DNA of 64,000 bases from positions 323-64,322 of the forward strand of contig CALXWW010000008.1 of NCBI GenBank assembly GCA_944392545.1, given 5' to 3'. Numbering within the stretch: the first letter of the stretch is position 1; every line of letters starts with the position of its first letter. Positions 26,195 to 55,167 of this stretch are shown here, one piece after another. This stretch comes from an uncultured Clostridia bacterium (GTDB lineage: Bacteria > Bacillota > Clostridia > TANB77 > CAG-508). The notes beneath the pieces are model-generated. The model was not told where the DNA came from. It worked only from the letters and a program-made list of their open reading frames with translations, and did no database searches. Position numbers and translations under genes: made by a program.

Positions 26195-27685
26195 TTATAT
26201 GAATAGCTTTATTTTTTTCTTTATTTTTACTGTATCTGTCTTAATCTTTAATGAACTTTCTATAATAGTATCGTCATAATATTCTACATATAGTTCTTTA
26301 TTTTCATATTTACATTGCATATTTAAATTTTGCAAACATATCATTTTCATATCAAATATCTCTTTTAAAATTTGATATGTTAATTCTGTATTCTCTGAAA
26401 AAATATCCCATATTTTAAGTTCTTGCGCTTTTTTTATTATTATTTTTATTACTTCTTCAAACTTTTCTTTTAAAACTTCTATATCTTTTATAGTTTTTTC
26501 ATAATCTATTGGAATATATCTGTAATATCTTAGTTTATATATCCAATTAATTAGCTTTTCTTTATTTTCTTCATTTATTTTAGCTATTTCTATCTGTACT
26601 TGATTTAAGAACTCTGTTGCTAGTTTAATTAAAGTATCCTCTTTATCTAATTTAATTATTTCTTCTAAAAATTTTACTTCCTCTTCTAATTTACTTTTCT
26701 GTTCTACAAATTCTTTTGGCAATATAATTTTATTACATTCGTCTATTTTTTCTATTAGTTTAATTCTTTCTTTATCCAATATTCCTACCAAATAACTTAC
26801 ACTAAATATTTTTTCTTTATTTGGTAATTTTTCATTTCTTGCATAATATTCTTTTTTTAGTAGTTCATTATTATTTAGTATTTTATCAATTTTTTCTATT
26901 TCTTTCGTATATTCTTTTTTTTCTTCCGTTATTTGATTTATAAAAGACCTTTTATCATTAAATAATTCTAATCTTGCTTCTTTCTCTTTCTTTATTTTTT
27001 CAAACTTTTCATTATATTCTGTATCATTTGCTTCTAGCATATATTTTTTTATTGCTATTTTTGATGCTACATCAAATATCTTTTTTTGCTTTTTATTGTT
27101 AATGTTTTTTCTACCATTTATCAATAATATTGTTTGATATATATAATTATATTCTATGTCTTTTATTTCCTTTTTATCTATATCCCATGACCACCCATTG
27201 AAATCTCTTATTAGCTCTATATTCGAATCAATTTCTCCTGATTTTAATAATGTAAACAATGGTTCTTCTATATACTCATAAGTTAATTCTTTCAAACTTG
27301 GAGATATATCCAAATTAAATATTGCTGTTAATAAAATAAATTCATTTTGAAAGCAAATGATTTCTCCGTTTTTCCTGTCAACCTTAAATAACATATTATC
27401 TTTTTCCAGCTCTTTTGCTTCTTGAGTTCCTGTTTTTACTAAAAATATTTTTAAGCATTTTTCCTTAATTATTCTTAGTAAATTTTCTATATATTTTCTT
27501 TTTGACGGAACTTCTACTTTTACTGTTTCATAATCTTTATATGCATTTTCTATTTTATATAGCATACTTAATAAAAGATTTTTCACTTCATAGGAAAATA
27601 GCTTATTTTCTAAAATTTTTTCTAATTCATTATTATAATCTTTTATATCTATATTAAGTTTAGATAAAATTTTATTTTTTTCCAT
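26195..27685 (-). CDS. Lys/Glu-rich coiled-coil hypothetical protein (496 aa)
   Basis: Long ORF with strongly K/E/I/N-biased composition; no recognisable motif. Confidence 0.4.
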   Translation of the reverse strand: MEKNKILSKLNIDIKDYNNELEKILENKLFSYEVKNLLLSMLYKIENAYKDYETVKVEVPSKRKYIENLLRIIKEKCLKIFLVKTGTQEAKELEKDNMLFKVDRKNGEIICFQNEFILLTAIFNLDISPSLKELTYEYIEEPLFTLLKSGEIDSNIELIRDFNGWSWDIDKKEIKDIEYNYIYQTILLINGRKNINNKKQKKIFDVASKIAIKKYMLEANDTEYNEKFEKIKKEKEARLELFNDKRSFINQITEEKKEYTKEIEKIDKILNNNELLKKEYYARNEKLPNKEKIFSVSYLVGILDKERIKLIEKIDECNKIILPKEFVEQKSKLEEEVKFLEEIIKLDKEDTLIKLATEFLNQVQIEIAKINEENKEKLINWIYKLRYYRYIPIDYEKTIKDIEVLKEKFEEVIKIIIKKAQELKIWDIFSENTELTYQILKEIFDMKMICLQNLNMQCKYENKELYVEYYDDTIIESSLKIKTDTVKIKKKIKLFI

Positions 27686-27705
27686 ATTACTCCTCTTTAG
27701 TAATT

Positions 27706-30105
27706 TTATTCTTCGCTATTGCTACTCATTTTCAGTTCTTCCCATCTTTCTTTTGGCATAAGTACCTCACGAGGTTTGCTACCCTGAAATCCGGAGATTA
27801 TGCCTCTTTCTTCCATTTGATCTATTATTCTTCCTGCTCTTGCATATCCAACTTTAAAACGTCTTTGTATGAACGAAGTGGATGCCTGTCCTGTTTCTAC
27901 TACTACATCTATTGCCTCCATTAATAATGGGTCTGTGTTATCATCTTCATCTCCAGAGTCTATTTCTTTATCTGTACTATTTGCATTTTCTATTTGCTTT
28001 AATATTTCGTCATTATATGTTGCTTCTCCGTTATTTTTAACAAAATCAACTATCTTTTCTACTTCTTTATCTGATATAAATGCACCTTGTATTCTAGTTG
28101 GTTTTGGTGCACCTGCCGGATAAAATAGCATATCACCTTTTCCAAGTAATTTTTCTGCACCTGCCATATCTAAAATTGTTCTTGAATCTACTTGTGAAGA
28201 TACCGCAAATGAAATTCTTGATGGCACGTTTGCTTTTATTATACCTGTAATAACATCAACAGATGGTCTCTGCGTTGCAATTACCAAATGCATACCAGCT
28301 GCTCTTGCCATTTGCGCTAATCTACAAATTGAATCTTCTACATCTTTTGGTGATACCATCATCAAATCCGAAAGCTCATCTATTATAATTACAATTTGTG
28401 GTAGTTTATGTCCTTCTCCCTCGCCTTCTAGTGCTTCATTATATCCTTTTATATCTCTTACATTTTTACTTGCAAACAGACTATACCTATTCACCATTTC
28501 TTGAACTGCCCATGCTAGAGCACCTGCTGCTTTTTTAGGATCTGTAACTACAGGAATAAGTAAATGTGGTATACCATTATACACAGAAAGCTCAACTACT
28601 TTTGGGTCTACCATAACAAGTTTTACTTCGCTTGGTTTTGCTTTGTATATGATACTTGCAATTAATGTATTTATACATACAGATTTACCAGAACCTGTGC
28701 TTCCCGCAATAAGTACATGTGGCATTTTTGCAATATCTGTTACCACCTCATTACCTGCCACATCCTTTCCTAATGCAAAAGCAAGTTTTGATTTATGGTT
28801 CTTAAAGCTATCACAATCTACTATATCCCTTAACGGTACTATTTCATTTTCTTTATTTGGAATTTCTATTCCTACTGCTTGTTTACCTGGTATAGGTGCT
28901 TCAATTCTTATTGTTTCCGCTGCTAAATTAAGTGCTATATCATCTGCAAGATTTGCAATTTTACTTACTCTTACTCCTTCTGCAGGCTTAAGTTCATATC
29001 TAGTTATTGCAGGGCCTACAGAAACATTTTCCACTTTAGCTGAAACTCCAAAACTATATAGAGTTTTTTGTAATTTAGTTGCTGTATCTGCAACAGCTTT
29101 CTTTCCTCCTTTTACAGTCTTTTTATCTCCTTCTGATAATAATTGTATTGGTGGGAATTCGTAGTGCTCATCTTCTACAGTCAAAGTATGTTCTAACTGT
29201 AATACTTGTTTCACTTTTTCTTCTTTTGTTTCCTGTTCTTCTTTAAATAAATTTGCTTCTAATACATCTGGATTCGTAATTTTCTCTTCTTTCTTGTTCT
29301 TTCCCCCTATGCTGAATGGAATTATATCATCATCTTTGTGGTCATATTTTTTGATTTTTTTATTTTTTTCTTCTTCCGAAGAATCATTTAAATTTATAGT
29401 TAACTGTTCTGCTAATTGTTCAGCTTCTCTCCTTTGTTCTTCTTTTTCCCTTAATCTTCTCTCTTTTTTAGTTTCTTTTCTATCTATTTCAATTTCTTCT
29501 CTTTTTTGCTTTCTTGTAAGTCTAGCTTCTTCTCGTTCTGATCTTCTTTCTTCCTTTTCCTCTCTTCTGCTATCTATAAAATCTGCTATCATTTCTGCTG
29601 GTTTTATTCCGAATATAAATACTAAGAGTATTGCACCTACTCCTATGCATAATATTACGGTTCCTATTTCACCAAGTAGCCCTATAAGTACAGATGCAAT
29701 TCCCGTTCCTATTGCACCACCACCTATATCTTGTGTCCCTCTTTCATATCCCTGACTAATTATAGTTGAAAATTCATCATTTATATCAAACGTACCTTTC
29801 GAAAATTGAAATACACTAAGCATAGTAGCAATGCATATTAAAAATATTCCATATTGTACTAACTTTGATATCAAGTACTCTTTATCTTCTGAAGTCATGT
29901 ATATAGCTATTAAAAATGTTCCTATTGGAATTATATATTTTATAGACCCCATTATTCCTCCAAGTATTGGACTCAAATGTTCTCCTATATATCCTGATTT
30001 TGTGTATATTAAAATTGCAAGTAATATACTTATAAATAACATAAATACTACTGCTACATTTATATCTAACTTATTTTTCTTTGCTTTTCTACCTCGTTTG
30101 GCCAA
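27706..30105 (-). CDS. ftsK: DNA translocase FtsK/SpoIIIE
   Basis: 4 N-terminal TM helices, an acidic linker, Walker [10 protein letters not shown], Walker [11 protein letters not shown], and a C-terminal gamma winged-helix ([24 protein letters not shown]). Confidence 0.92.
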
Positions 30106-30192
30106 AGTATTTTCCTCCTTTGAAGATATCTCTAATATTATCCACTGGTATTATATCATAAGGCTAACAAAAAGCAAACAAAAATTTAAAAT

Positions 30193-30209
30193 TGTAACAT
30201 AAATGTAAT
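30193..30209 (+). promoter_or_regulatory. TGTAAC-N5-TGTAAT direct repeat (WalR-like box) ~90 bp upstream of the ftsK start
   Basis: Read from the sequence (attgtaacataaatgtaata). Confidence 0.3.
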
Positions 30210-30476
30210 AAAAATTAATTTAAATAGCTAAAGAGAAAATTGGATGCATTCTATAAATAAAAATGTATCAATTTTCTCTTTTATTATTGACTGTTCTTTT
30301 AATATTAGTTTAGAAGTAATAAAAATATAATCTTATATACCCTTTAATCATTCTCTGATATTTATCTCTACAAGCATCATAGATAACATATAAAATAAAA
30401 AATAGGAAATCCTATTTTTTATACTTTTATTTTAATAATATAATATATAATGTATAATAAATTTCAAAACGATTTC

Positions 30477-44999: not shown

Positions 45000-45245
45000 T
45001 TATTTTACACTTTTTATATCTTGTAATTCAAATCTATATTTTTGTTTTACTTCTGGATATTTATTATGATCTACCTCTGACATAAACATATTATAGGGTC
45101 TAATGTATAATTCATTATCTCCATATAAAGCTCTATATACTACATATTTTTCTCTTGTCTCACTATGAGTAGCTACGTCTTCTATAATATAACTATCTCC
45201 CTTAAAATGTTTATATACTCCATGTATTTTTAATTCTCTATCCAT
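45000..45245 (-). CDS. DUF1653 domain protein
   Basis: 81 aa with the YKHFKG..Y....A.HSET.E..VVYRALYG...LYIRP pattern. Confidence 0.55.
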   Translation of the reverse strand: MDRELKIHGVYKHFKGDSYIIEDVATHSETREKYVVYRALYGDNELYIRPYNMFMSEVDHNKYPEVKQKYRFELQDIKSVK

Positions 45246-45327: not shown

Positions 45328-46371
<1,044 letters not shown>

Positions 46372-46513
46372 TTAGTATTACCTAAACATAAACATTTTAT
46401 ATCAAACTCACATATTTTTCAAGTATTTATTCGTTATTTTCACAATGTATAAACAAAAAGAGCATAAAAAAAACACAATAAGTAATATTTTACATACCTA
46501 TTGCGCTTTTTTA

Positions 46514-46771
46514 TTATAATTTGATATCATCTGTTATTTCTATTTCTTTAAATAAAAAGTTTTTTACCTTTTTTCCTGTTATCTCATAGAAAAAGAAGTC
46601 GTGAACTTTTTGTCCTGTAATTTCTTGTGTCCAGAAATCATGTACCTCTTGGAAAACTTTTTCTTGCTTTGGTGTTAATTCAAGAGCTATATCTTGGCAT
46701 AAAAAATTTCTTATTTTTGTCCATACGCTTACTTCTGTTGGTAAATTACTTGTATTTACACGATTTTCCAT
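46514..46771 (-). CDS. Hypothetical small protein with three degenerate internal repeats (KVHDF..EITGK)
   Basis: 85-aa ORF between gap and the IS. Confidence 0.3.
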   Translation of the reverse strand: MENRVNTSNLPTEVSVWTKIRNFLCQDIALELTPKQEKVFQEVHDFWTQEITGQKVHDFFFYEITGKKVKNFLFKEIEITDDIKL

Positions 46772-46815: not shown

Positions 46816-47084
46816 ATTTATACTACATTTTCTTTTATTAATCAAGTAAATATTTTTTATATTTTCAAATTTTAAAATCAAATTCCGCTATAACCATTTA
46901 TTTATATAGTGTTTGCTGATTTGTTACATTTTTATTACAAGTTTGTTACAGAAATATTACGATGTTTAATTAGTATTTTTCATTAACTATGCTATCTGTC
47001 CCATCATTCTATACTAATTTAATTTTACTATATTTATATATTTTTATTTTTTCTCTATATCTCCATCTGTCTTCCTAAAAAACT
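46816..47084. repeat. Left copy of a ~270-bp direct repeat flanking the IS (a duplicated spoVT 3' end plus downstream region); probably a long IS1634-type target duplication
   Basis: Identical to 49061..49327 except for 2 mismatches; contains the reverse complement of the last 9 spoVT codons and its stop. Confidence 0.75.
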
Positions 47085-47236
47085 CGGGAGTTTGACACTT
47101 CACATAAATTGTTAAAAGCATTATTCATTGAAATAATGTGTTTTTTTGGATTTTTTCTATCTTTTTTTGTATTTTTTCTTGCGTTCTTCTGCGTGTTGTT
47201 GTATAATACACATATCATAACACAAGGAGAAATAAT

Positions 47237-48982
47237 ATGAGATTAAAAATAACAAAGTGCAAAAATGTCAATATATACTATGTAATAAAAACTGTATATG
47301 TAGATGGTAAGGAGAAAACTAAAACAGTCGAAAGATTAGGAACTGAACAAGAAGTCATTCAAAAAGCTAATGGTGAAGATCCTGTTGTTTGGGCAAAAAA
47401 ATATATTGATGCTCTAAATAAAGAAGAAAAACAAGGAACTCAAAAAGTTTTAATTCCAAAATCTCCATCAGCTTTAATTAAGAAAGACAAACAAAATTCA
47501 TTTAATTGTGGGTATTTCTTTTTGGAAAAAATCTACTATGCCTTAGGTTTAGATAATATATGCAACACCATATATAATAAATATAAAATTACATTTGATT
47601 TAAATAGCATATTATCAAGATTGGTTTACAGTCGAATAATTTATCCTTCTTCAAAATTAGCTACATATGAATTATCAAAACATTTTGTTGAACAACCAAT
47701 TTTCGAATTACAACATATATACCGTGCATTGGAAATAATTACCAAAGAAAATAATTTCATACAATCTGAGCTTTACAAAAATAGTTTAAACATTTCAGAT
47801 AGGGCAACTGGTATACTTTACTATGATTGTACCAATTACTTCTTTGAAATAGAAGATGAAGACGAGTTTAGAAAATACGGACCTTCTAAAGAGCATAGAC
47901 CAAATCCAATTATTCAAATGGGACTTTTTATGGACGGTAATGGTATTCCTCTAGCTTTTAATATTAATTCTGGAAATACTAATGAGCAACAAACTCTTAC
48001 TCCTCTTGAAGAAAAAATAATTCAAGATTTTAAGTTATCTAAATTTGTTGTATGTACTGATGCAGGACTTGCCTCAACAGATAATAGAAAATTTAATGAT
48101 AAAGGGGATCGTGCTTTTATCACTACTCAATCAATCAAACAACTAAAAAAACATTTAAAGGATTGGGCTCTTTCTCCTACTGATTGGAAATTAGCTGGTT
48201 CCGACAAGACATATAATATTAACTCTGTTCAAGAAAAGTTAGAAAATACAACAGATGAAACCAAAAAACAAAAAATTAAAAATTTAACATTTTACAAAGA
48301 AAGATGGATCAATGAAAATGGTTTAGAACAAAGATTAATTGTGACATTCTCTTTTAAATATCAACAATATCAAAGACATATTAGAGAAGGACAAATTGTG
48401 CGAGCCAAAAAAGCAATTGAAAATAAAAATTTTAAATTAGATAAACGTAAACAAACTGACTTTAAAAGATTCATTAAACAAACTAATATAACATCAGATG
48501 GTGAAGTTGCTGACAAAGGTATTCTTTCAATTGATATGAATATAGTTGCAAAAGAAGAGCTTTTTGACGGTTTCTATGGCGTTTGTACAAATTTAGAAGA
48601 TAATGTAAAAGAAATAATCAAAGTAAATCATAGAAGATGGGAAATAGAAGAAAGTTTTAGAATTATGAAAAGTGAATTTAAAGCTAGACCAGTATATTTA
48701 AGTCGTGAAGATAGAATAAAAGCACACTTTGTCATTTGCTACATTTCCTTGCTAATACACAGACTTTTAGAGAAAAAAATTGAAGAAAAGTTTTCAAGTT
48801 CAGAAATTATCTATTGCTTAAGAAATATGAATTTACTAAATCATGGAATTGATGGATATGAACCTATTTATACAAGAACTGATTTAACTGATTTATTGCA
48901 CGAAAAGTTTGGCTTTAGAACAGACTATGAAATTACTAGTCATATGGAAATGAAAAAAATTTTAAAAAACTTAAAAAAATAA
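47237..48982 (+). CDS. IS1634-family (IS4-related) DDE transposase
   Basis: 581 aa. Its N-terminus (MRLKITKCKNVNIYYVIKTVYVDGKEKTKTVERLG) and the central segment YDCTNYFFEIE...GPSKEHRPNPIIQMGLFMDGNGIPLAF...TNEQ are typical of this family. It is the only large plus-strand gene. Confidence 0.75.
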   Translation: MRLKITKCKNVNIYYVIKTVYVDGKEKTKTVERLGTEQEVIQKANGEDPVVWAKKYIDALNKEEKQGTQKVLIPKSPSALIKKDKQNSFNCGYFFLEKIYYALGLDNICNTIYNKYKITFDLNSILSRLVYSRIIYPSSKLATYELSKHFVEQPIFELQHIYRALEIITKENNFIQSELYKNSLNISDRATGILYYDCTNYFFEIEDEDEFRKYGPSKEHRPNPIIQMGLFMDGNGIPLAFNINSGNTNEQQTLTPLEEKIIQDFKLSKFVVCTDAGLASTDNRKFNDKGDRAFITTQSIKQLKKHLKDWALSPTDWKLAGSDKTYNINSVQEKLENTTDETKKQKIKNLTFYKERWINENGLEQRLIVTFSFKYQQYQRHIREGQIVRAKKAIENKNFKLDKRKQTDFKRFIKQTNITSDGEVADKGILSIDMNIVAKEELFDGFYGVCTNLEDNVKEIIKVNHRRWEIEESFRIMKSEFKARPVYLSREDRIKAHFVICYISLLIHRLLEKKIEEKFSSSEIIYCLRNMNLLNHGIDGYEPIYTRTDLTDLLHEKFGFRTDYEITSHMEMKKILKNLKK

Positions 48983-49008
48983 TTCACGGTACGCAAAATC
49001 AATTTAAG

Positions 49009-49042
49009 CTCAAACCAGTTATACCAATGGTTTGAGCTTTTA
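49009..49042 (+). terminator. Terminator-like hairpin (gctcaaacc..ggtttgagc + TTTT) after the transposase gene, inside the IS right end
   Basis: 9-bp stem, 12-nt loop, T-tract. Confidence 0.5.
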
Positions 49043-49060
49043 AACTGTCAAATTTAGGAT

Positions 49061-49327
49061 TTATACTACATTTTCTTTTATTAATCAAGTAAATATTTTT
49101 TATATTTTTAAATTTTAAAGTCAAATTCCGCTATAACCATTTATTTATATAGTGTTTGCTGATTTGTTACATTTTTATTACAAGTTTGTTACAGAAATAT
49201 TACGATGTTTAATTAGTATTTTTCATTAACTATGCTATCTGTCCCATCATTCTATACTAATTTAATTTTACTATATTTATATATTTTTATTTTTTCTCTA
49301 TATCTCCATCTGTCTTCCTAAAAAACT
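49061..49327. repeat. Right copy of the ~270-bp direct repeat (the native spoVT 3' end and downstream region)
   Basis: See 46816..47084. Confidence 0.75.
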
Positions 49328-49852
49328 TGCTGCTGATTGTACAACTTTTTGTTCTACTTCAGACATTTTTGTTCCTTTATCTTTTGCTAAAAGAATTACT
49401 GTTCCTATTGTATCTCCATCTGATATTATTGGATATACTACCTGTGAATTAAATTTTCTTTCTTTTGTATCATTTTTAGTAATAGGTACTGACATATCAT
49501 TATTTTCTTTACTTGTATATTTTTCTTTATCTTCCATTATTCTTTCTAATTCTTCACTTATTCCTTGCTCTAAAAATTCTTTTTTTGGTCCACCAGACAC
49601 AGCTATAACAGTATCTCTATCTGTAATGCATGCAATATGGCCTGTAGTTTTAGCAAGTGTTTCTGCATACTCTGTTGCGAATTCTGAAAGTTCACCTATA
49701 GGTGAATATTTTTTTAATATTACTTCCCCTTCTTTATCAGTAAATATTTCTAAAGGATCTCCCTCTTTTATTCTTAAAGTTTTACGTATTTCTTTTGGTA
49801 TAACAACTCTACCCAAATCATCTATTCTTCTTACAACGCCTGTTGCTTTCAT
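49298..49852 (-). CDS. spoVT: Stage V sporulation protein T (AbrB-N plus GAF domain regulator)
   Basis: MKATGVVRRIDDLGRVVIPKEIRKTLRIKEGDPLEIF is near-identical to B. subtilis SpoVT; 184 aa. Confidence 0.92.
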   Translation of the reverse strand: MKATGVVRRIDDLGRVVIPKEIRKTLRIKEGDPLEIFTDKEGEVILKKYSPIGELSEFATEYAETLAKTTGHIACITDRDTVIAVSGGPKKEFLEQGISEELERIMEDKEKYTSKENNDMSVPITKNDTKERKFNSQVVYPIISDGDTIGTVILLAKDKGTKMSEVEQKVVQSAASFLGRQMEI

Positions 49853-49932
49853 AATTTTCCTCCTTTTAAATTTTATGTTTATTCTTATTATTACAAAAGA
49901 GGAAAAATTTTATACATTTTTTTATTAAATTT

Positions 49933-49992
49933 GAAACAAGGGGACACACAAATCGTTCCAAAATCGGAACGATTTGTGTGTCCCCTTGTTTC
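49933..49992. terminator. Perfect 27-bp-stem palindrome (gaaacaaggggacacacaaatcgttcc / ggaacgatttgtgtgtccccttgtttc, 6-nt loop). Probable terminator of the KAP NTPase gene, but unusually long, and repeated as a half-site at 1624..1650
   Basis: Read directly from the sequence. It lies 4 bp after the KAP gene stop and 80 bp upstream of the spoVT start. Confidence 0.6.
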
Positions 49993-49995
49993 AGT

Positions 49996-51966
49996 TTATT
50001 CTTCATTTGTTATTTCTTCTTTTTTATATTCCTTTATTACATTTCCAAGTTCATCCGCAAAATCTTGAAGTATAACTAATTTTATTGTAGGTTCTTTTCC
50101 ATCTATATAGTCGTCCATAACTTGTTTTAATTTTTTAAGGTTTGGCAATTCGTCTTGCAAATATTCTCCATATCTTTTTGCTCTATCTAAAAGTTTCTCT
50201 TTTATTGTTACTATATCTTCATTACTTGCACATGATATTCTTTGGAACATTTGAAATACATCATAATATCTAAATATTGGAACTTGCATACATTCTTTAT
50301 CAAATTTATCATAAAATTGTTCCATTTTCATTGGTATATATTTAAATATTTCCTCTGCTTTTTCTCTATACATTTTTTCTTCTAGTTTTTCATTTATACT
50401 ATTAAAATATTGAAGTATCTCTTCCATATCTTCTGATTTGTCTTCTTCTATTGCCAAACTTGCAAGTTCCTCTTCAACGTTTGGACAATAGCTTGAATTT
50501 AACGAGCATATATTCATACCGTTTAGAAATATGCTTTTTATTGTTTTCATATCATAATCAATAAGTCCTTTTCTCACAAAATGTGCAAAATATGCAAAAA
50601 GTTTAACTACATTTATTAGTTCTATTTTTCCATTTTTTACATCATCTATTACTTCTGAAATCACCCCACCAAATTGATCATCTGATATTTTCCAATATTC
50701 TTCTGTAAGAAGTCTTTTATATCCAGGTAATTTATCTGTATCTACAGTATTTATTATTAACTCCATGTCTCGTTTAAATGCTTTCATATCGAAAATACGT
50801 GTACGTACATACAGTTCTATAAATTTAAAGAATCTATATTCTGCTTTGAAATTATAGTAGTAATTATTATCAAATTCTTTTATATAGAATTGTCTGTTGT
50901 CCATAAATACTCTTGATGACACAAGTATTGCTTTATATTCTTCATTATCATTAATATTTACAAATTTATCTTTTGTAATCTTTCCTGCTTTAATTTCAAA
51001 AGATATTGCTATTGTAAAGATTAACATTGTTTGTAATACTCTATGGTTTGTATTTGGATATGATTTATTTACCATATCAAATATTTTTTTAAAATTGGTT
51101 AATGAGTGTTTTAAAATTCTTAAGTTTCTCGTTCCACTTTTATTAAATGTAGAAATGATTAAATTTGTATTTTCTCTTAAAAATCTAATTAAATCTGGAC
51201 AGTTTTCATATCTCATTAAAAGTCCATTTATTATATACGTAAATTCTGGTGCATATTCAAAAGTCTCTCCAATTAATTTTTCTTTAATTCTCTCATAATC
51301 GTTTGCTTTATCAAAAACATATTCAATAGTATCACGTATTCTTTCAACCATTGGTTTATCTGTTTTTATATTAAGTTTATTTTCTTTATCCAAAAGATAC
51401 GTTGCAATAAAGGTTTTCATTTCTAAGTTACTATTTTTTAATTTTGTAGATAATTCTTTTTCGTTACATATTATTATTGTTTTTATATGGTCATGCTCAA
51501 CAAAGTTATTAATGTAGCCCAATATATCAATAACGTCTACATTTGCTCTTTCCAAGTCATCAAAGCAAAGGACCTTATCTTCTGTAGAGAAAAATTGACC
51601 ATAATTTATCCTATCTCCATTTTGAGTAACTCCAAAAAAATTTGCCATATCCAAACCTGTTTTTGCATACTCTGGTATATTTTTTACTCCACTTGCATCC
51701 ATATACTTTTTCAAGTTTTTATCCATAAGTTGAGTAGTTTCTATAAATATTTTTTTGCTTATTTCTTCTAAATTAGATATACCATATAAAGACATATATA
51801 TTGCAGTGTATCTTTTTCCATTAAGTTGCATTGATTCAATTTTAGGCTTTATTTTATGATTCCAAAAGTATGTTTTTCCGCTTCCCCATTCACCATTAAG
51901 CATTATTGCGTAATCTGTATAATCTGACCTTATATAATCTAAAATACTTTCAACTAAATCTTCCAT
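49996..51966 (-). CDS. KAP-family P-loop NTPase domain protein
   Basis: Walker A GEWGSGKT near the N-terminus, Walker-B-like CFDDLER; a large alpha-helical C-terminal part typical of KAP NTPases. Confidence 0.7.
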   Translation of the reverse strand: MEDLVESILDYIRSDYTDYAIMLNGEWGSGKTYFWNHKIKPKIESMQLNGKRYTAIYMSLYGISNLEEISKKIFIETTQLMDKNLKKYMDASGVKNIPEYAKTGLDMANFFGVTQNGDRINYGQFFSTEDKVLCFDDLERANVDVIDILGYINNFVEHDHIKTIIICNEKELSTKLKNSNLEMKTFIATYLLDKENKLNIKTDKPMVERIRDTIEYVFDKANDYERIKEKLIGETFEYAPEFTYIINGLLMRYENCPDLIRFLRENTNLIISTFNKSGTRNLRILKHSLTNFKKIFDMVNKSYPNTNHRVLQTMLIFTIAISFEIKAGKITKDKFVNINDNEEYKAILVSSRVFMDNRQFYIKEFDNNYYYNFKAEYRFFKFIELYVRTRIFDMKAFKRDMELIINTVDTDKLPGYKRLLTEEYWKISDDQFGGVISEVIDDVKNGKIELINVVKLFAYFAHFVRKGLIDYDMKTIKSIFLNGMNICSLNSSYCPNVEEELASLAIEEDKSEDMEEILQYFNSINEKLEEKMYREKAEEIFKYIPMKMEQFYDKFDKECMQVPIFRYYDVFQMFQRISCASNEDIVTIKEKLLDRAKRYGEYLQDELPNLKKLKQVMDDYIDGKEPTIKLVILQDFADELGNVIKEYKKEEITNEE

Positions 51967-52789: not shown

Positions 52790-55167
52790 TTACATATTAA
52801 CTATTTTATATGTAAGCCCTGTATTTCTTTTTTTGTTGTCATTATTGTTTATCATAAAATCTATTATATTTTTACTTCCTATTACAATCAACATTTTCTT
52901 TGCTCTTGTCATACCTGTATATAACAAGTTCCTTGTAAGTAACATTGGTGCTGTTTGCCAAATCGGCATAATTACTACGTCAAACTCACTTCCGCTGAGC
53001 TTTATGTACTGTTATAGCATAAGCATGTTCTATTTGCTCTAGTTCATTATATTGATACCAAACCTCTTTATCATCATCAAATTTAATTTTAACTTGTTTG
53101 TTAAAATCATCTATAACTTCTATTGTACCAAATTCACCATTAAATACTCCACTTCCACTCTCAAAAAACGGTTCTTTTCTTTCCCAATATATATCATAAT
53201 TGTTTTTTATTTGCATTATCCTGTCACCTTCTCTAAAAAAGTTATCTCCAAATTTTTTCTCTCTTTTAAAATCCGATGATGGATTTACAGTATTCTGTAA
53301 CAATTTATTTAATTCTTTAGTTCCTAAATCTCCTTTTTTTGTAGGAGTTATTATTTGAATATTCTTCAAAAAGTCATAGTTTCCATAGTTTTTTAATCTT
53401 TCTCCACTTAAAGATAGAATATTGTATAATATTTTTTCTTTACTTCGTTCATCTACATAAAAGAAATCATCAATGAAATCTGTATTCTCTTGTTCATTTT
53501 TATTAGCTCTTAAGTTTTCTATTTCTTCTTTTGTTATAAAGCTTTCTCCTTCATTTACTCTGTGTGCATTCACTATTATTTTACTTTTAGCAGCTTGTCT
53601 AAATATTTTATTAAGTCTAATTGTAGTTATTCTCTCTGACTCAATAATATCCTTTAATACATTTCCTGGTCCTACTGATGGTAGTTGATCTATATCTCCT
53701 ACTAAAACCAACTTTGTTCCTTTATATAACGCTTTGCATAAATAATTCATTAAAAATATATCCACCATCGACATTTCATCCACAATTACTATATCTCCAT
53801 CAATTGGCGCTACAGAAAAATCTGGATTTATTCCTTGATTTTCATCTGAAATTTTTCCTATTTCTAATAATCTGTGTAATGTACTTGCTTCGTTTCCCGT
53901 TGCCTCTGTCATTTTTTTAGCAGCTCTTCCCGTAGGGGCACAAAGTACTGGTTTCATTTCATTATGTTTGAATATATCTATTATTGTTTTTATTATAGTA
54001 GTTTTACCAGTACCAGGTCCGGCCAGTGATAATACAAACATTGTTGTCGTTTATTGCTCTTATCGCCTCTAATTGTTTTTCTGATAATTCTATACTAGAT
54101 TTTTCTTCAAATAGTTTTAGTTCTTTTTCGAATCTATCTATTTTCTTTATATTTGTATATTTATCCAAATCTATCAAACGTCTTGCAACATTCTCTTCAG
54201 CTTTATAATACTGGTATAGATATACCCATTCTTCGCCATCTCTTTCTTCGATTACTAAATCTTCTTTTGCTTTCATAGTTATAATAGAATCTTCTATATC
54301 ATTTTCATTAACATTTAATAATTTTTTTACAAACTCTATTAATCCTCCATATTTTGTACAGCAATGGCCATTATATGTCATAAGTATCAGTGCATGCTTT
54401 ATACCACTTCTTATTCTTTTTTCATTGTTATACTCAAAACCAAGTCCTAATGCCATTTTATCAACTTGTTCAAAATCCACCTTATTAACTAAATCTACTA
54501 ATATATATGGATTACTTTCTATTTCATCTATTGCATTTATTCCTAACTCTTTATATATTTTTTCTGCATTTTGTGGACCTATACCAAATTTATCTAAAAA
54601 GCCAACTAATTGCCATACTTCCCAATTTTCTATAAAAGTATTTGCTATCTCTATTGCTTTTTCTTTTGTTATGCCTTTAACCTGTGCTAATTTTGATGGT
54701 TCAAATTTAAATACATTTATTGTATCTTCACCAAATGTATCTACAATATTTCTTGCAGTAGCAGGTCCAACTCCTTTTATTCCACAATTAGCAAGATAAT
54801 TTTCTAATGCTTTTGTTGTTTGTGGCATCATTTTTTCAAAAGTATCTACCTTAAACTGAGTACCGTATTCAGGATGCTCTATAAATTTTCCAATAACTTT
54901 AAGGGTATCTCCTATATTTACAAAAGGCAGATACCCTACTATTGTAGTTTCAGAATCTATGTTTCTAAATATATCATCTAGAATCTCTTTCATAGAATTA
55001 TCATACTCTAATTCTATTTGCTCATTTTCATCTTTACTAGACTCGTTTTTTTTACTTTTCTTTCTATTCTGTTTTATACTATCTTTATCCAGCTTAAAAA
55101 CAGCAATACAATAACTATTTATCTCATTTTTATATATAATTTCAATAACTTCTCCTTGTAATTCCAA
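52790..55167 (-). pseudogene. recD2: RecD2-like ATP-dependent DNA helicase (SF1B) interrupted by two +1 frameshifts, giving ORF fragments 54004..55167 and 52986..54041 plus an out-of-frame C-terminal ~65 aa
   Basis: N-terminal HhH (GIKGVGPATA). Walker A is split (..IITG | GPGTGKTT) at ~54022, within ggcCggacc. The C-terminal helicase motif is split (HKAQ | GSEFDVVIMP..) at ~52995, within cagCggaag. Deleting one C at each site gives a ~792-aa ORF. Confidence 0.8.

Follow-up and report, generated by a model that had tools for sequence, protein, structure and literature searches.

Insertion sequences (ISs) of the IS1634 family are about 1,500–2,000 bp long, have the end consensus C-----YT and usually duplicate 5–6 bp of AT-rich target; duplications of 8–514 bp have been reported for IS1634 and IS1549 only, and the long duplications of the family are described without a mechanistic model (PMC2266710). 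Here we describe a 1,974-bp IS in a 64,000-nucleotide stretch of DNA (hereafter the window; G+C content 28.6%) from an uncultured Clostridia bacterium (contig CALXWW010000008.1), where it lies between spoVT and the gap operon and is flanked by direct repeats of 269 bp. A single transposition of this active element very probably made the repeats as one very long target duplication, likeliest through an asymmetric target capture in which one end would be anchored beside a promoter −10 hexamer and the other would join at a loose distance upstream.

The described elements resemble the window IS to different degrees. IS1634 is like it in family, in size (1,872 versus 1,974 bp), in its single open reading frame (ORF) coding for a DDE transposase, in its long and variable repeats, and in being multi-copy and recently active. 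Its host is a mollicute, as against a low-GC spore-former here; the two are likened by family and description rather than by compared sequences, and the −10 anchoring seen here is unmentioned for IS1634 in the literature found. IS1549 of Mycobacterium smegmatis is the founding member (the family was first named IS1549), with long direct repeats reported on insertion (PMC2266710, citing Plikaytis 1998); likened by description only, it has a high-GC actinobacterial host in which a TATAAT-type target would be rarer. ISPfe2 (Paracoccus; 1,884 bp) and ISGka5 (Geobacillus) belong to the same family, are of similar length, have a single transposase and have been shown experimentally to transpose, with duplications of 6 bp (PMC3281130, PMC8024623) compared with 13–910 bp for the window IS and its clade. 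The IS4/Tn5/Tn10-type elements share with the window IS the DDE_Tnp_1 domain and terminal inverted repeats (IRs), and the window transposase has, read by eye, an apparent IS4-like C-terminal R..E......K signature, and their duplications arise by staggered strand transfer and repair, as proposed here; their stagger is a fixed 9 bp from one synaptic complex, whereas that of the window clade is variable and spans tens to hundreds of base pairs.

The element and its flanking repeats are organized as follows.

46816–47084, no strand: left duplication copy, holding the native upstream region of ORF85 (the small gene next to the insertion) and, at 47055–47084, a 30-nt piece of the spoVT 3' end that is non-functional
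47085–49058, + strand: IS1634-family IS, 1,974 bp, with boundaries from 100%-identical copies
47085–47102, + strand: left inverted repeat (IRL), CGGGAGTTTGACACTTCA, matching the end consensus, with TTTGACA conserved in relatives
47237–48982, + strand: transposase gene, 581 aa, intact (NF033559, PF01609)
49041–49058, + strand: right inverted repeat (IRR), reverse complement CCTAAATTTGACAGTTTA
49059–49327, no strand: right duplication copy, holding the spoVT stop and last 9 codons (49298–49327) and the 239 nt downstream of spoVT

The IS is present once in the window, between the two 269-nt repeats. Its boundaries were set by ten contigs of other samples in which the 1,974 bp recur at 100% identity, some of these contigs having a flank in common; both ends are fixed because the flanks of these copies part from those of the window exactly at 47085 and 49058. 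A sequence-only reading of the window had placed the start correctly and the end at 49060, which is 2 nt too far. The transposase is the sole ORF of the IS, and an identical protein is found on 18 contigs of other samples. It scores 363.8 bits against the NCBIfam model NF033559, 'IS1634 family transposase' (transpos_IS1634; cutoff 100), with residues 27–554 on profile positions 2–472 of 483, and its scores against the IS4 and IS701 profile models lie under their cutoffs. The Pfam domain PF01609 (DDE_Tnp_1) matches residues 211–506 (E 6e-11) on a 200-position profile, which amounts to a large insertion; the span is the IS4-superfamily catalytic domain with a long spacer ahead of the C-terminal E region. 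Read by eye, the segment VNHRRWEIEESFRIMK has R, E and K at Tn5-like spacing, with N at the expected Y of YREK.

The imperfect terminal IRs (CGGGAGTTTGACAC... and CCTAAATTTGACAG...) both include TTTGACA, and the tips of IRL (CGGGAGTT...) and IRR (CCTAAATT...) agree with the family end consensus C-----YT (PMC2266710). Judged by transposase model, DDE domain, size and end consensus, the window IS is an IS1634-family member, and the family assignment given earlier, with one 581-aa DDE transposase and TTTGACA in the IRs, stands. Its 1,974 bp and one ORF are inside the family size range; its 269-bp duplication departs from the typical 5–6 bp, a departure known for IS1634 and IS1549, so membership is unaffected (PMC2266710). 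The sequence-only reading had treated long, variable duplications as a property of IS1634-family elements generally; this is right for IS1634, IS1549 and the clade described here, and too broad for a family in which 5–6 bp is usual.

The two flanking repeats are exactly 269 nt each and differ at two positions (46866 C versus 49109 T; 46877 A versus 49120 G), as established by a repeat search, a MAFFT alignment of the copies and a script (BLAST E-values 3e-137 and 6e-140); these are the lengths and differences first noticed. There is no third copy in the 64-kb window. The right copy holds the end of spoVT (last 9 codons plus stop, 49298–49327), again as first read, and its downstream region.

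Empty versions of the site are found in ten same-species metagenome contigs (L001–L010), retrieved by an exact look-up of the SpoVT protein. All ten are without the IS, and each has the 269 nt once. Once the IS and one repeat copy are taken out, the window sequence aligns end to end with these contigs over 1,357 nt, at 98.7–99.5% identity for nine of them and about 96% for L007. Contig L011, of another sample, has a second insertion of the identical IS, with window 26418–30265 (99.74%) as left flank and with the remaining 55 nt of right flank matching window 30150–30204 (100%). That insertion duplicated 116 bp, and the window is its empty site:

30150–30265, no strand: empty target of the L011 insertion, the duplication starting with ATTATATCA, which is TGATATAAT on the minus strand

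The TGATATAAT site is 44 nt upstream of an ftsK/spoIIIE-like gene (27706–30105, − strand). In addition, contig L018 (1–2161) is an assembly cycle of the IS and a 132-nt spacer with a 55-nt terminal overlap, which is what a 132-bp duplication around a multicopy IS yields in a de Bruijn graph. The duplication length of one identical IS thus varies, with 269 versus 116 (versus about 132) bp. Single-copy empty sites together with a second site at which 116 bp are duplicated indicate a true target-site duplication of variable length, and the sequences support the 269-bp repeats being the target-site duplication of one IS insertion between spoVT and the gap operon. The sequence-only reading had proposed just such a single event and had suggested looking for an empty site in related strains; the ten empty sites and the second, 116-bp duplication sustain it. 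It had also named what would speak against it, namely short duplications at other copies of the IS and a 269-bp repeat that exists independently of it; the duplications at the other copies are long, and the 269 bp are single-copy where the IS is absent.

Long duplications extend well beyond this species. A scan of one genome per species gave 80 loci with transposases 37–79% identical to that of the window IS, 31 of which have at least 1 kb on both flanks; in 20 of these 31, perfect or near-perfect direct repeats of 48–910 bp abut both IRs. One long-read metagenome-assembled genome has seven copies of a single IS, with duplications of 126, 172, 189, 194, 330, 744 and 910 bp. The 23 verified long duplications range over 48–910 bp with a median of 116 bp (13–910 bp overall when the Ligilactobacillus salivarius case below is included), and inspection of the about 23 values by eye gave no convincing signal of helical periodicity.

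Two relatives are on closed plasmids of isolates. In the megaplasmid of Carnobacterium maltaromaticum LMA28 (L124), a 309-bp duplication starts at TTGACA-17-TATATT, upstream of a lactose-PTS operon, and takes in all of the control DNA that separates this operon from a divergent gene for a DeoR-family regulator, together with the first portion of that gene; both divergent genes retain a full control region. In L. salivarius pBNS11-37kb (L125), where the transposase is 44% identical, the duplication is 13 bp (ATTATAGCACAAG; 2848–2865 and 4918–4931), and the IS sits directly upstream of the ermC leader peptide (ermCL), with its IRR adjoining TGCTATAAT, probably the −10 element of the erm promoter.

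Some flanks carry further rearrangements. The left 309-bp copy of the Carnobacterium plasmid is broken at 2607–2721 by a 115-nt insert that has its own 10-bp repeat (GTTCGATTCA) and short terminal inverted repeats (CCTAGTTATGTGT...) and is MITE-like. Locus L051 (OZ006970.1; 2391–2849 and 4815–7457) has nested repeats, in which 169 nt abut the IRR and the 296 nt abutting the IRL recur 2.4 kb downstream, a pattern suggestive of a rearrangement or of two events in succession.

The two ends of the elements differ sharply in the sequences they adjoin. With all elements oriented so that the transposase gene is on the + strand, the duplication start beside the IRR is nearly always ATTATA-like, that is, TATAAT-like on the opposite strand. 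For the window IS, the start is for instance ATTTATAC in the window and ATTATATCA in L011, and further copies have ATTATAAT, ATTATACA and ATTATACT; the relatives follow the same pattern. Among the first 30 independent junctions ATTATA is at +1..+6 exactly in 11 and within one mismatch in 20, against a background per position of 0.17% and 2.0%, respectively (binomial P 2e-23 and 2e-27). In a set of 48 distinct junctions, from the window IS and relatives at 50–85% identity, a perfect TATAAT stands against the IRR in 20 and a hexamer with at least 5 of 6 matches in 34. One relative has ten identical bases, ATTATATACT, in common to five different flanks. The IRL junction has almost no sequence information, except that the last duplicated base is C in 13 of 23 sites. 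ATTATA was considered as the true end of the IS and rejected, as it is present once in both empty sites and starts the distal repeat copy in relatives.

The hexamers beside the IRR have the surroundings of promoters. A TGn precedes 35% of the 34 good hexamers, compared with 5.9% of TATAAT-like controls from the same flanks (Fisher P 4e-7), and a −35 element with at least 4 of 6 matches at 16–18 nt spacing is present in 65% compared with 16–17% (P 3e-10). These figures hold when the controls are limited to DNA outside long ORFs (P 5e-7 for TGn and 2e-9 for −35). An ORF starts 15–150 nt downstream of the hexamer on the promoter strand at 13 of 21 sites, against 5 of 21 in a mirrored control. Several sites are textbook-like, for example TTGACA-17-TATAAT (L012), TTGACA-18-TATAAT (L023) and the Carnobacterium TTGACA-17-TATATT; in the window, the ORF85 site reads TTGATT-17-TATAAA-T immediately before the IRR, and the ftsK-like site reads TGATATAAT immediately before the IRR. 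Together these features suggest that the hexamers at IRR junctions are promoter −10 elements.

We propose that the 3' end of the IRR would join the target directly beside a TATAAT-type −10 hexamer, between the hexamer and the transcription start. In the window the target would be the probable ORF85 promoter, and the attacked strand, reading ATTATA, would be the promoter template strand. The 3' end of the IRL would join the other strand at a loose point 13–910 bp upstream of the promoter; in the window this point lies at 269 bp, 30 nt within the 3' end of spoVT. Host filling of the two long single-stranded gaps would then duplicate everything in between. The order and chemistry of strand transfer and the gap repair are modeled on IS4-type DDE transposases. 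The two strand transfers would be spatially uncoupled, for example by target looping or sequential joining, with one end placed by sequence and the other by proximity, because so large and variable a stagger is impossible from one rigid synaptic complex on one helical face. We prefer the −10 hexamer being read by the transposase itself rather than via RNA polymerase, and the ATTATATACT shared by five flanks favours such direct reading.

The outcome would be of low cost to the host, in the style of a safe haven: the left copy keeps the promoter and all upstream DNA for ORF85-gap, and the right copy keeps spoVT whole, with its downstream region. The spare promoter copy would fire into the IS, antisense to the transposase gene and toward a hairpin inside the IRR. 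The logic is like that of yeast Ty3 and Ty1, which insert at Pol III promoters, and of Tn7, which inserts at attTn7: the element enters at a set position with respect to the control region of a gene, host genes being left working in each case. The enzymes are unrelated (retroviral-type integrases with host-factor tethering, and TnsABCD), and in those systems the duplications are short and fixed and the promoter is not duplicated.

For the targeting step only, a different agent is conceivable, although we give it considerably less credence than direct reading: RNA polymerase–sigma-A bound at a promoter, for example at the melted −10 of open complexes, may direct the IRR strand transfer. The junction between the −10 hexamer and the transcription start falls in the region that is melted in open complexes, the features read by sigma (TGn, and −35 at 16–18 nt) are enriched 4–6-fold even against intergenic TATAAT-like controls, and both IRs contain a TTGACA hexamer. 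All of this is indirect, and equal enrichment is expected if the transposase reads ~ATTATA(Y)AC and selection acts against genic hexamers; the −35/TGn enrichment fits RNA polymerase, and it also fits selection removing insertions at non-promoter hexamers. The ATTATATACT that is identical across five flanks of one relative looks like direct reading, and some junctions have poor −35 elements. Extended to the clade, the idea is equally tentative: its members might be guided to active sigma-A promoters, the IRR end joining inside the melted −10/discriminator of the open complex and the other end being captured variably upstream. If so, each insertion duplicates a working promoter, the elements are bacterial promoter-tethered, safe-haven DDE transposons, and promoter tethering explains the 25-year-old puzzle of long, variable target duplications.

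It is improbable that there is no real target preference and that the association with promoters is survivorship of tolerated intergenic insertions. Genic insertions are counter-selected and the host genomes are about 80% coding, but selection cannot give single-base phasing: the hexamer is exactly at +1..+6 of the IRR in 34 of 48 junctions, never so at the IRL, and always in one orientation relative to the IS.

Homologous recombination offers a yet weaker account, in which the 269-bp repeats are a segmental duplication from unequal crossover of two ISs 269 bp apart or from re-integration of a circle of IS plus flank. There is precedent in Mycoplasma mycoides PG1, where tandem 8–13-kb repeats with IS1634 copies between them appear and disappear on passage, the 13-kb repeats being separated by a single IS1634 copy (PMC1798306); these 13-kb repeats might be an extreme of the process proposed here, or recombination products. 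The two single-nucleotide polymorphisms (SNPs) between the window copies also match standing haplotypes, and recombination has therefore touched the locus. Against it, the window has a single IS and no outer copies bordering the duplicated segments, the repeats meet the IR tips exactly, a like architecture with other lengths recurs at 20 of 31 relatives and at the second site of the same IS, and recombination would not put a TATAAT-like hexamer at the IRR in 34 of 48 junctions. Least credible is an assembly artefact that placed the IS between collapsed or duplicated copies of a single 269-bp region: the host is known from metagenomes only, short-read contigs with the IS are demonstrably chimeric and no further contig with the filled spoVT site was retrieved, yet the two copies are told apart by 2 SNPs, the junctions follow the rules of independent long-read and isolate insertions (IRR beside ATTTATA, IRL at variable distance), and the geometry recurs at the second insertion, which is in another sample.

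Several points weigh against a single transposition with asymmetric target capture, or narrow its reach. All of the evidence is comparative, and the transposition reading rests on sequences. The window copies, with 2 differences, are not perfectly preserved; at both sites the two bases are alleles that segregate in the population, L002 having the left pair (C, A) and the other nine contigs the right pair (T, G), and three further variants are common to both window copies and L002. Two fresh mutations recreating linked standing alleles 11 nt apart are unlikely; more likely origins are a short tract of recombination, passage of the filled allele to a different haplotype, or an assembly that mixed strains. 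Use of the 2 SNPs as a clock for the insertion was rejected, both differences being standing alleles. Eleven of the 31 well-flanked relatives are without a simple long repeat; they include truncated elements, the nested case L051 and possibly products of inter-copy recombination.

Furthermore, only some copies are fit for measuring duplication length, as short-read contigs with the IS are often chimeric. For example, L012 and L017 have the same left flank and different right flanks, and L012 and L019 have the same right flank; among the ten identical-IS contigs the duplication length comes from L011 and the L018 cycle only, and in the closer relatives P0013, P0015 and P0044, which are likewise chimeric, the IRR junctions were used and the duplication lengths mostly were not. 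A minority of junctions, such as L049 and L066, have no TATAAT-like hexamer. Selection after insertion, rather than targeting, could be behind the −35/TGn enrichment. Finally, full-text searches, which covered neither the founding IS1634 and IS1549 papers (Vilei 1999, Plikaytis 1998) nor ISfinder, brought up no case of −10 or promoter targeting by an IS1634-family element; the target rule may already stand in those papers or in ISfinder. What appears to be new is the anchoring of one end at a promoter −10 and the ensuing promoter duplication; long variable repeats were already known.

Taken alone, the locus is of modest interest, an ordinary IS with a known oddity of its family, and its wider value lies in the family-wide target rule that it exposes. 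The comparative data give the long-duplication oddity a testable model, in which one end is anchored to the single base at a −10, the other is free, and the duplicated stretch covers the promoter with its upstream control DNA. If the model is true, a DDE transposon enters the regulation-dense DNA of a compact genome without silencing genes, its landing sites become predictable, its tolerance beside essential genes (rpsF, dnaX, ftsK, gap) is explained, and a natural promoter-seeking insertion tool is suggested. Long repeats around a multicopy IS also create assembly cycles and chimeras, which matters for annotation and metagenome assembly.

The effect on the neighbouring genes can be read from the locus, in which the following features flank or overlap the insertion.

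45328–46329, − strand: gap (type I GAPDH), first gene of the glycolytic cluster (TIGR01534, 453 bits)
46514–46771, − strand: ORF85, a small conserved gene between the insertion and gap, called in 10/10 empty-site loci
46817–46845, − strand: probable sigma-A promoter of ORF85(-gap) in the left copy, TTGATT (46845–46840), 17 nt, TATAAA (46822–46817)
49060–49088, − strand: duplicate of the ORF85 promoter, 1 nt from the IRR, pointing into the IS and antisense to the transposase gene
49298–49852, − strand: spoVT (TIGR02851, 273 bits)

The spoVT gene is intact and codes for 184 aa (cutoff of the TIGR02851 model, 235.9), and the protein is identical in the empty-site contigs. The gene order in those contigs is spoVT, 283 nt, ORF85, gap, DUF1653, pgk, tpi, pgm, yezG-like and eno. 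Owing to the duplication, ORF85 and gap still have the full 283 nt of their native upstream sequence and, beyond it, 30 nt of spoVT, and spoVT keeps its original 239 nt of downstream DNA. The sequence-only reading had suggested that the insertion displaced the regulatory region of the gap operon; this is not supported, as the complete upstream region remains on ORF85-gap. The gap start codon lies 755 nt downstream of the IS, beyond ORF85 and a 184-nt spacer, and gap has a promoter-like element of its own, TTGAAA-17-TAAAAT (TATAAT-like), at 46422–46394. The predicted ORF85 promoter is 45 nt upstream of the ORF85 ATG, and the left-copy version at 46817–46845 probably still drives ORF85; the promoter/terminator scan overlooked it, its rules demanding T at position 6 of the −10 hexamer. 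The sole plausible regulatory change is that any read-through from spoVT, if present, must now cross the 2-kb IS. Within the repeat the same scan found no canonical terminator downstream of spoVT, and an Rfam scan of the entire window returned one tRNA only and thus no known RNA element for the repeat.

In the cggR-gapA operons of Bacillus and Clostridium, a gene for the SorC-family regulator CggR lies directly upstream of gap; here there is no such gene. The window has none between spoVT and gap, and in the ten empty-site contigs the precomputed Pfam matches likewise show no gene of the CggR/SorC type ahead of gap. Since the empty sites lack it too, the absence of cggR is native and not caused by the IS, to which it had earlier been tied.

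Two further features lie within the IS.

47179–47207, + strand: probable (predicted) transposase promoter, TTGCGT-17 nt-TATAAT, with a ribosome-binding site, AGGAG, after it
49006–49039, no strand: hairpin with a 12-bp stem just inside the IRR (dG −17.1 kcal/mol, z −3.8)

The element at 47179–47207 is the probable promoter of the transposase gene. The hairpin has UUUU directly after it on the + strand; it is likely the terminator of the transposase transcript, and it could block transcription coming in from the right. We note that both IRs have an inward-facing TTGACA, the −35 consensus, at equal distance from their tips (47092–47098 and 49045–49051), and that some relatives (IRs of L022–L090) have TTTAAACA in its place. 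The IS ends thus resemble a −35 element, and the target resembles a −10 element.

The neighbourhood has several minor peculiarities. ORF85 has no Pfam or NCBIfam match and contains an internal threefold repeat (KVFQEVHDFWTQEITG / KVHDFFFYEITG / KVKNFLFKEIEIT). The DUF1653 gene (45000–45245, − strand) separates gap from pgk and overlaps the pgk start with its stop at 45000, and a YezG-like gene between pgm and eno is, like it, a small extra gene in the gap-eno cluster, in the window and in L001–L010. Between the stop of a KAP-family NTPase gene (49996–51966, − strand) and the spoVT start there is a perfect 28-nt inverted repeat with a 6-nt loop (49932–49993; TGAAACAAGGGGACACACAAATCGTTCC / GGAACGATTTGTGTGTCCCCTTGTTTCA), G+C-rich for this genome, which may serve as a terminator or protein-binding site or may represent a repeat element. 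Two overlapping ORFs of 387 and 351 aa make up a split recD2/yrrC-like helicase gene (window 52986–54041, − strand, and upstream; L001 2686–4867); the split is present in the window and in all related contigs and is therefore fixed in the species rather than a sequencing error.

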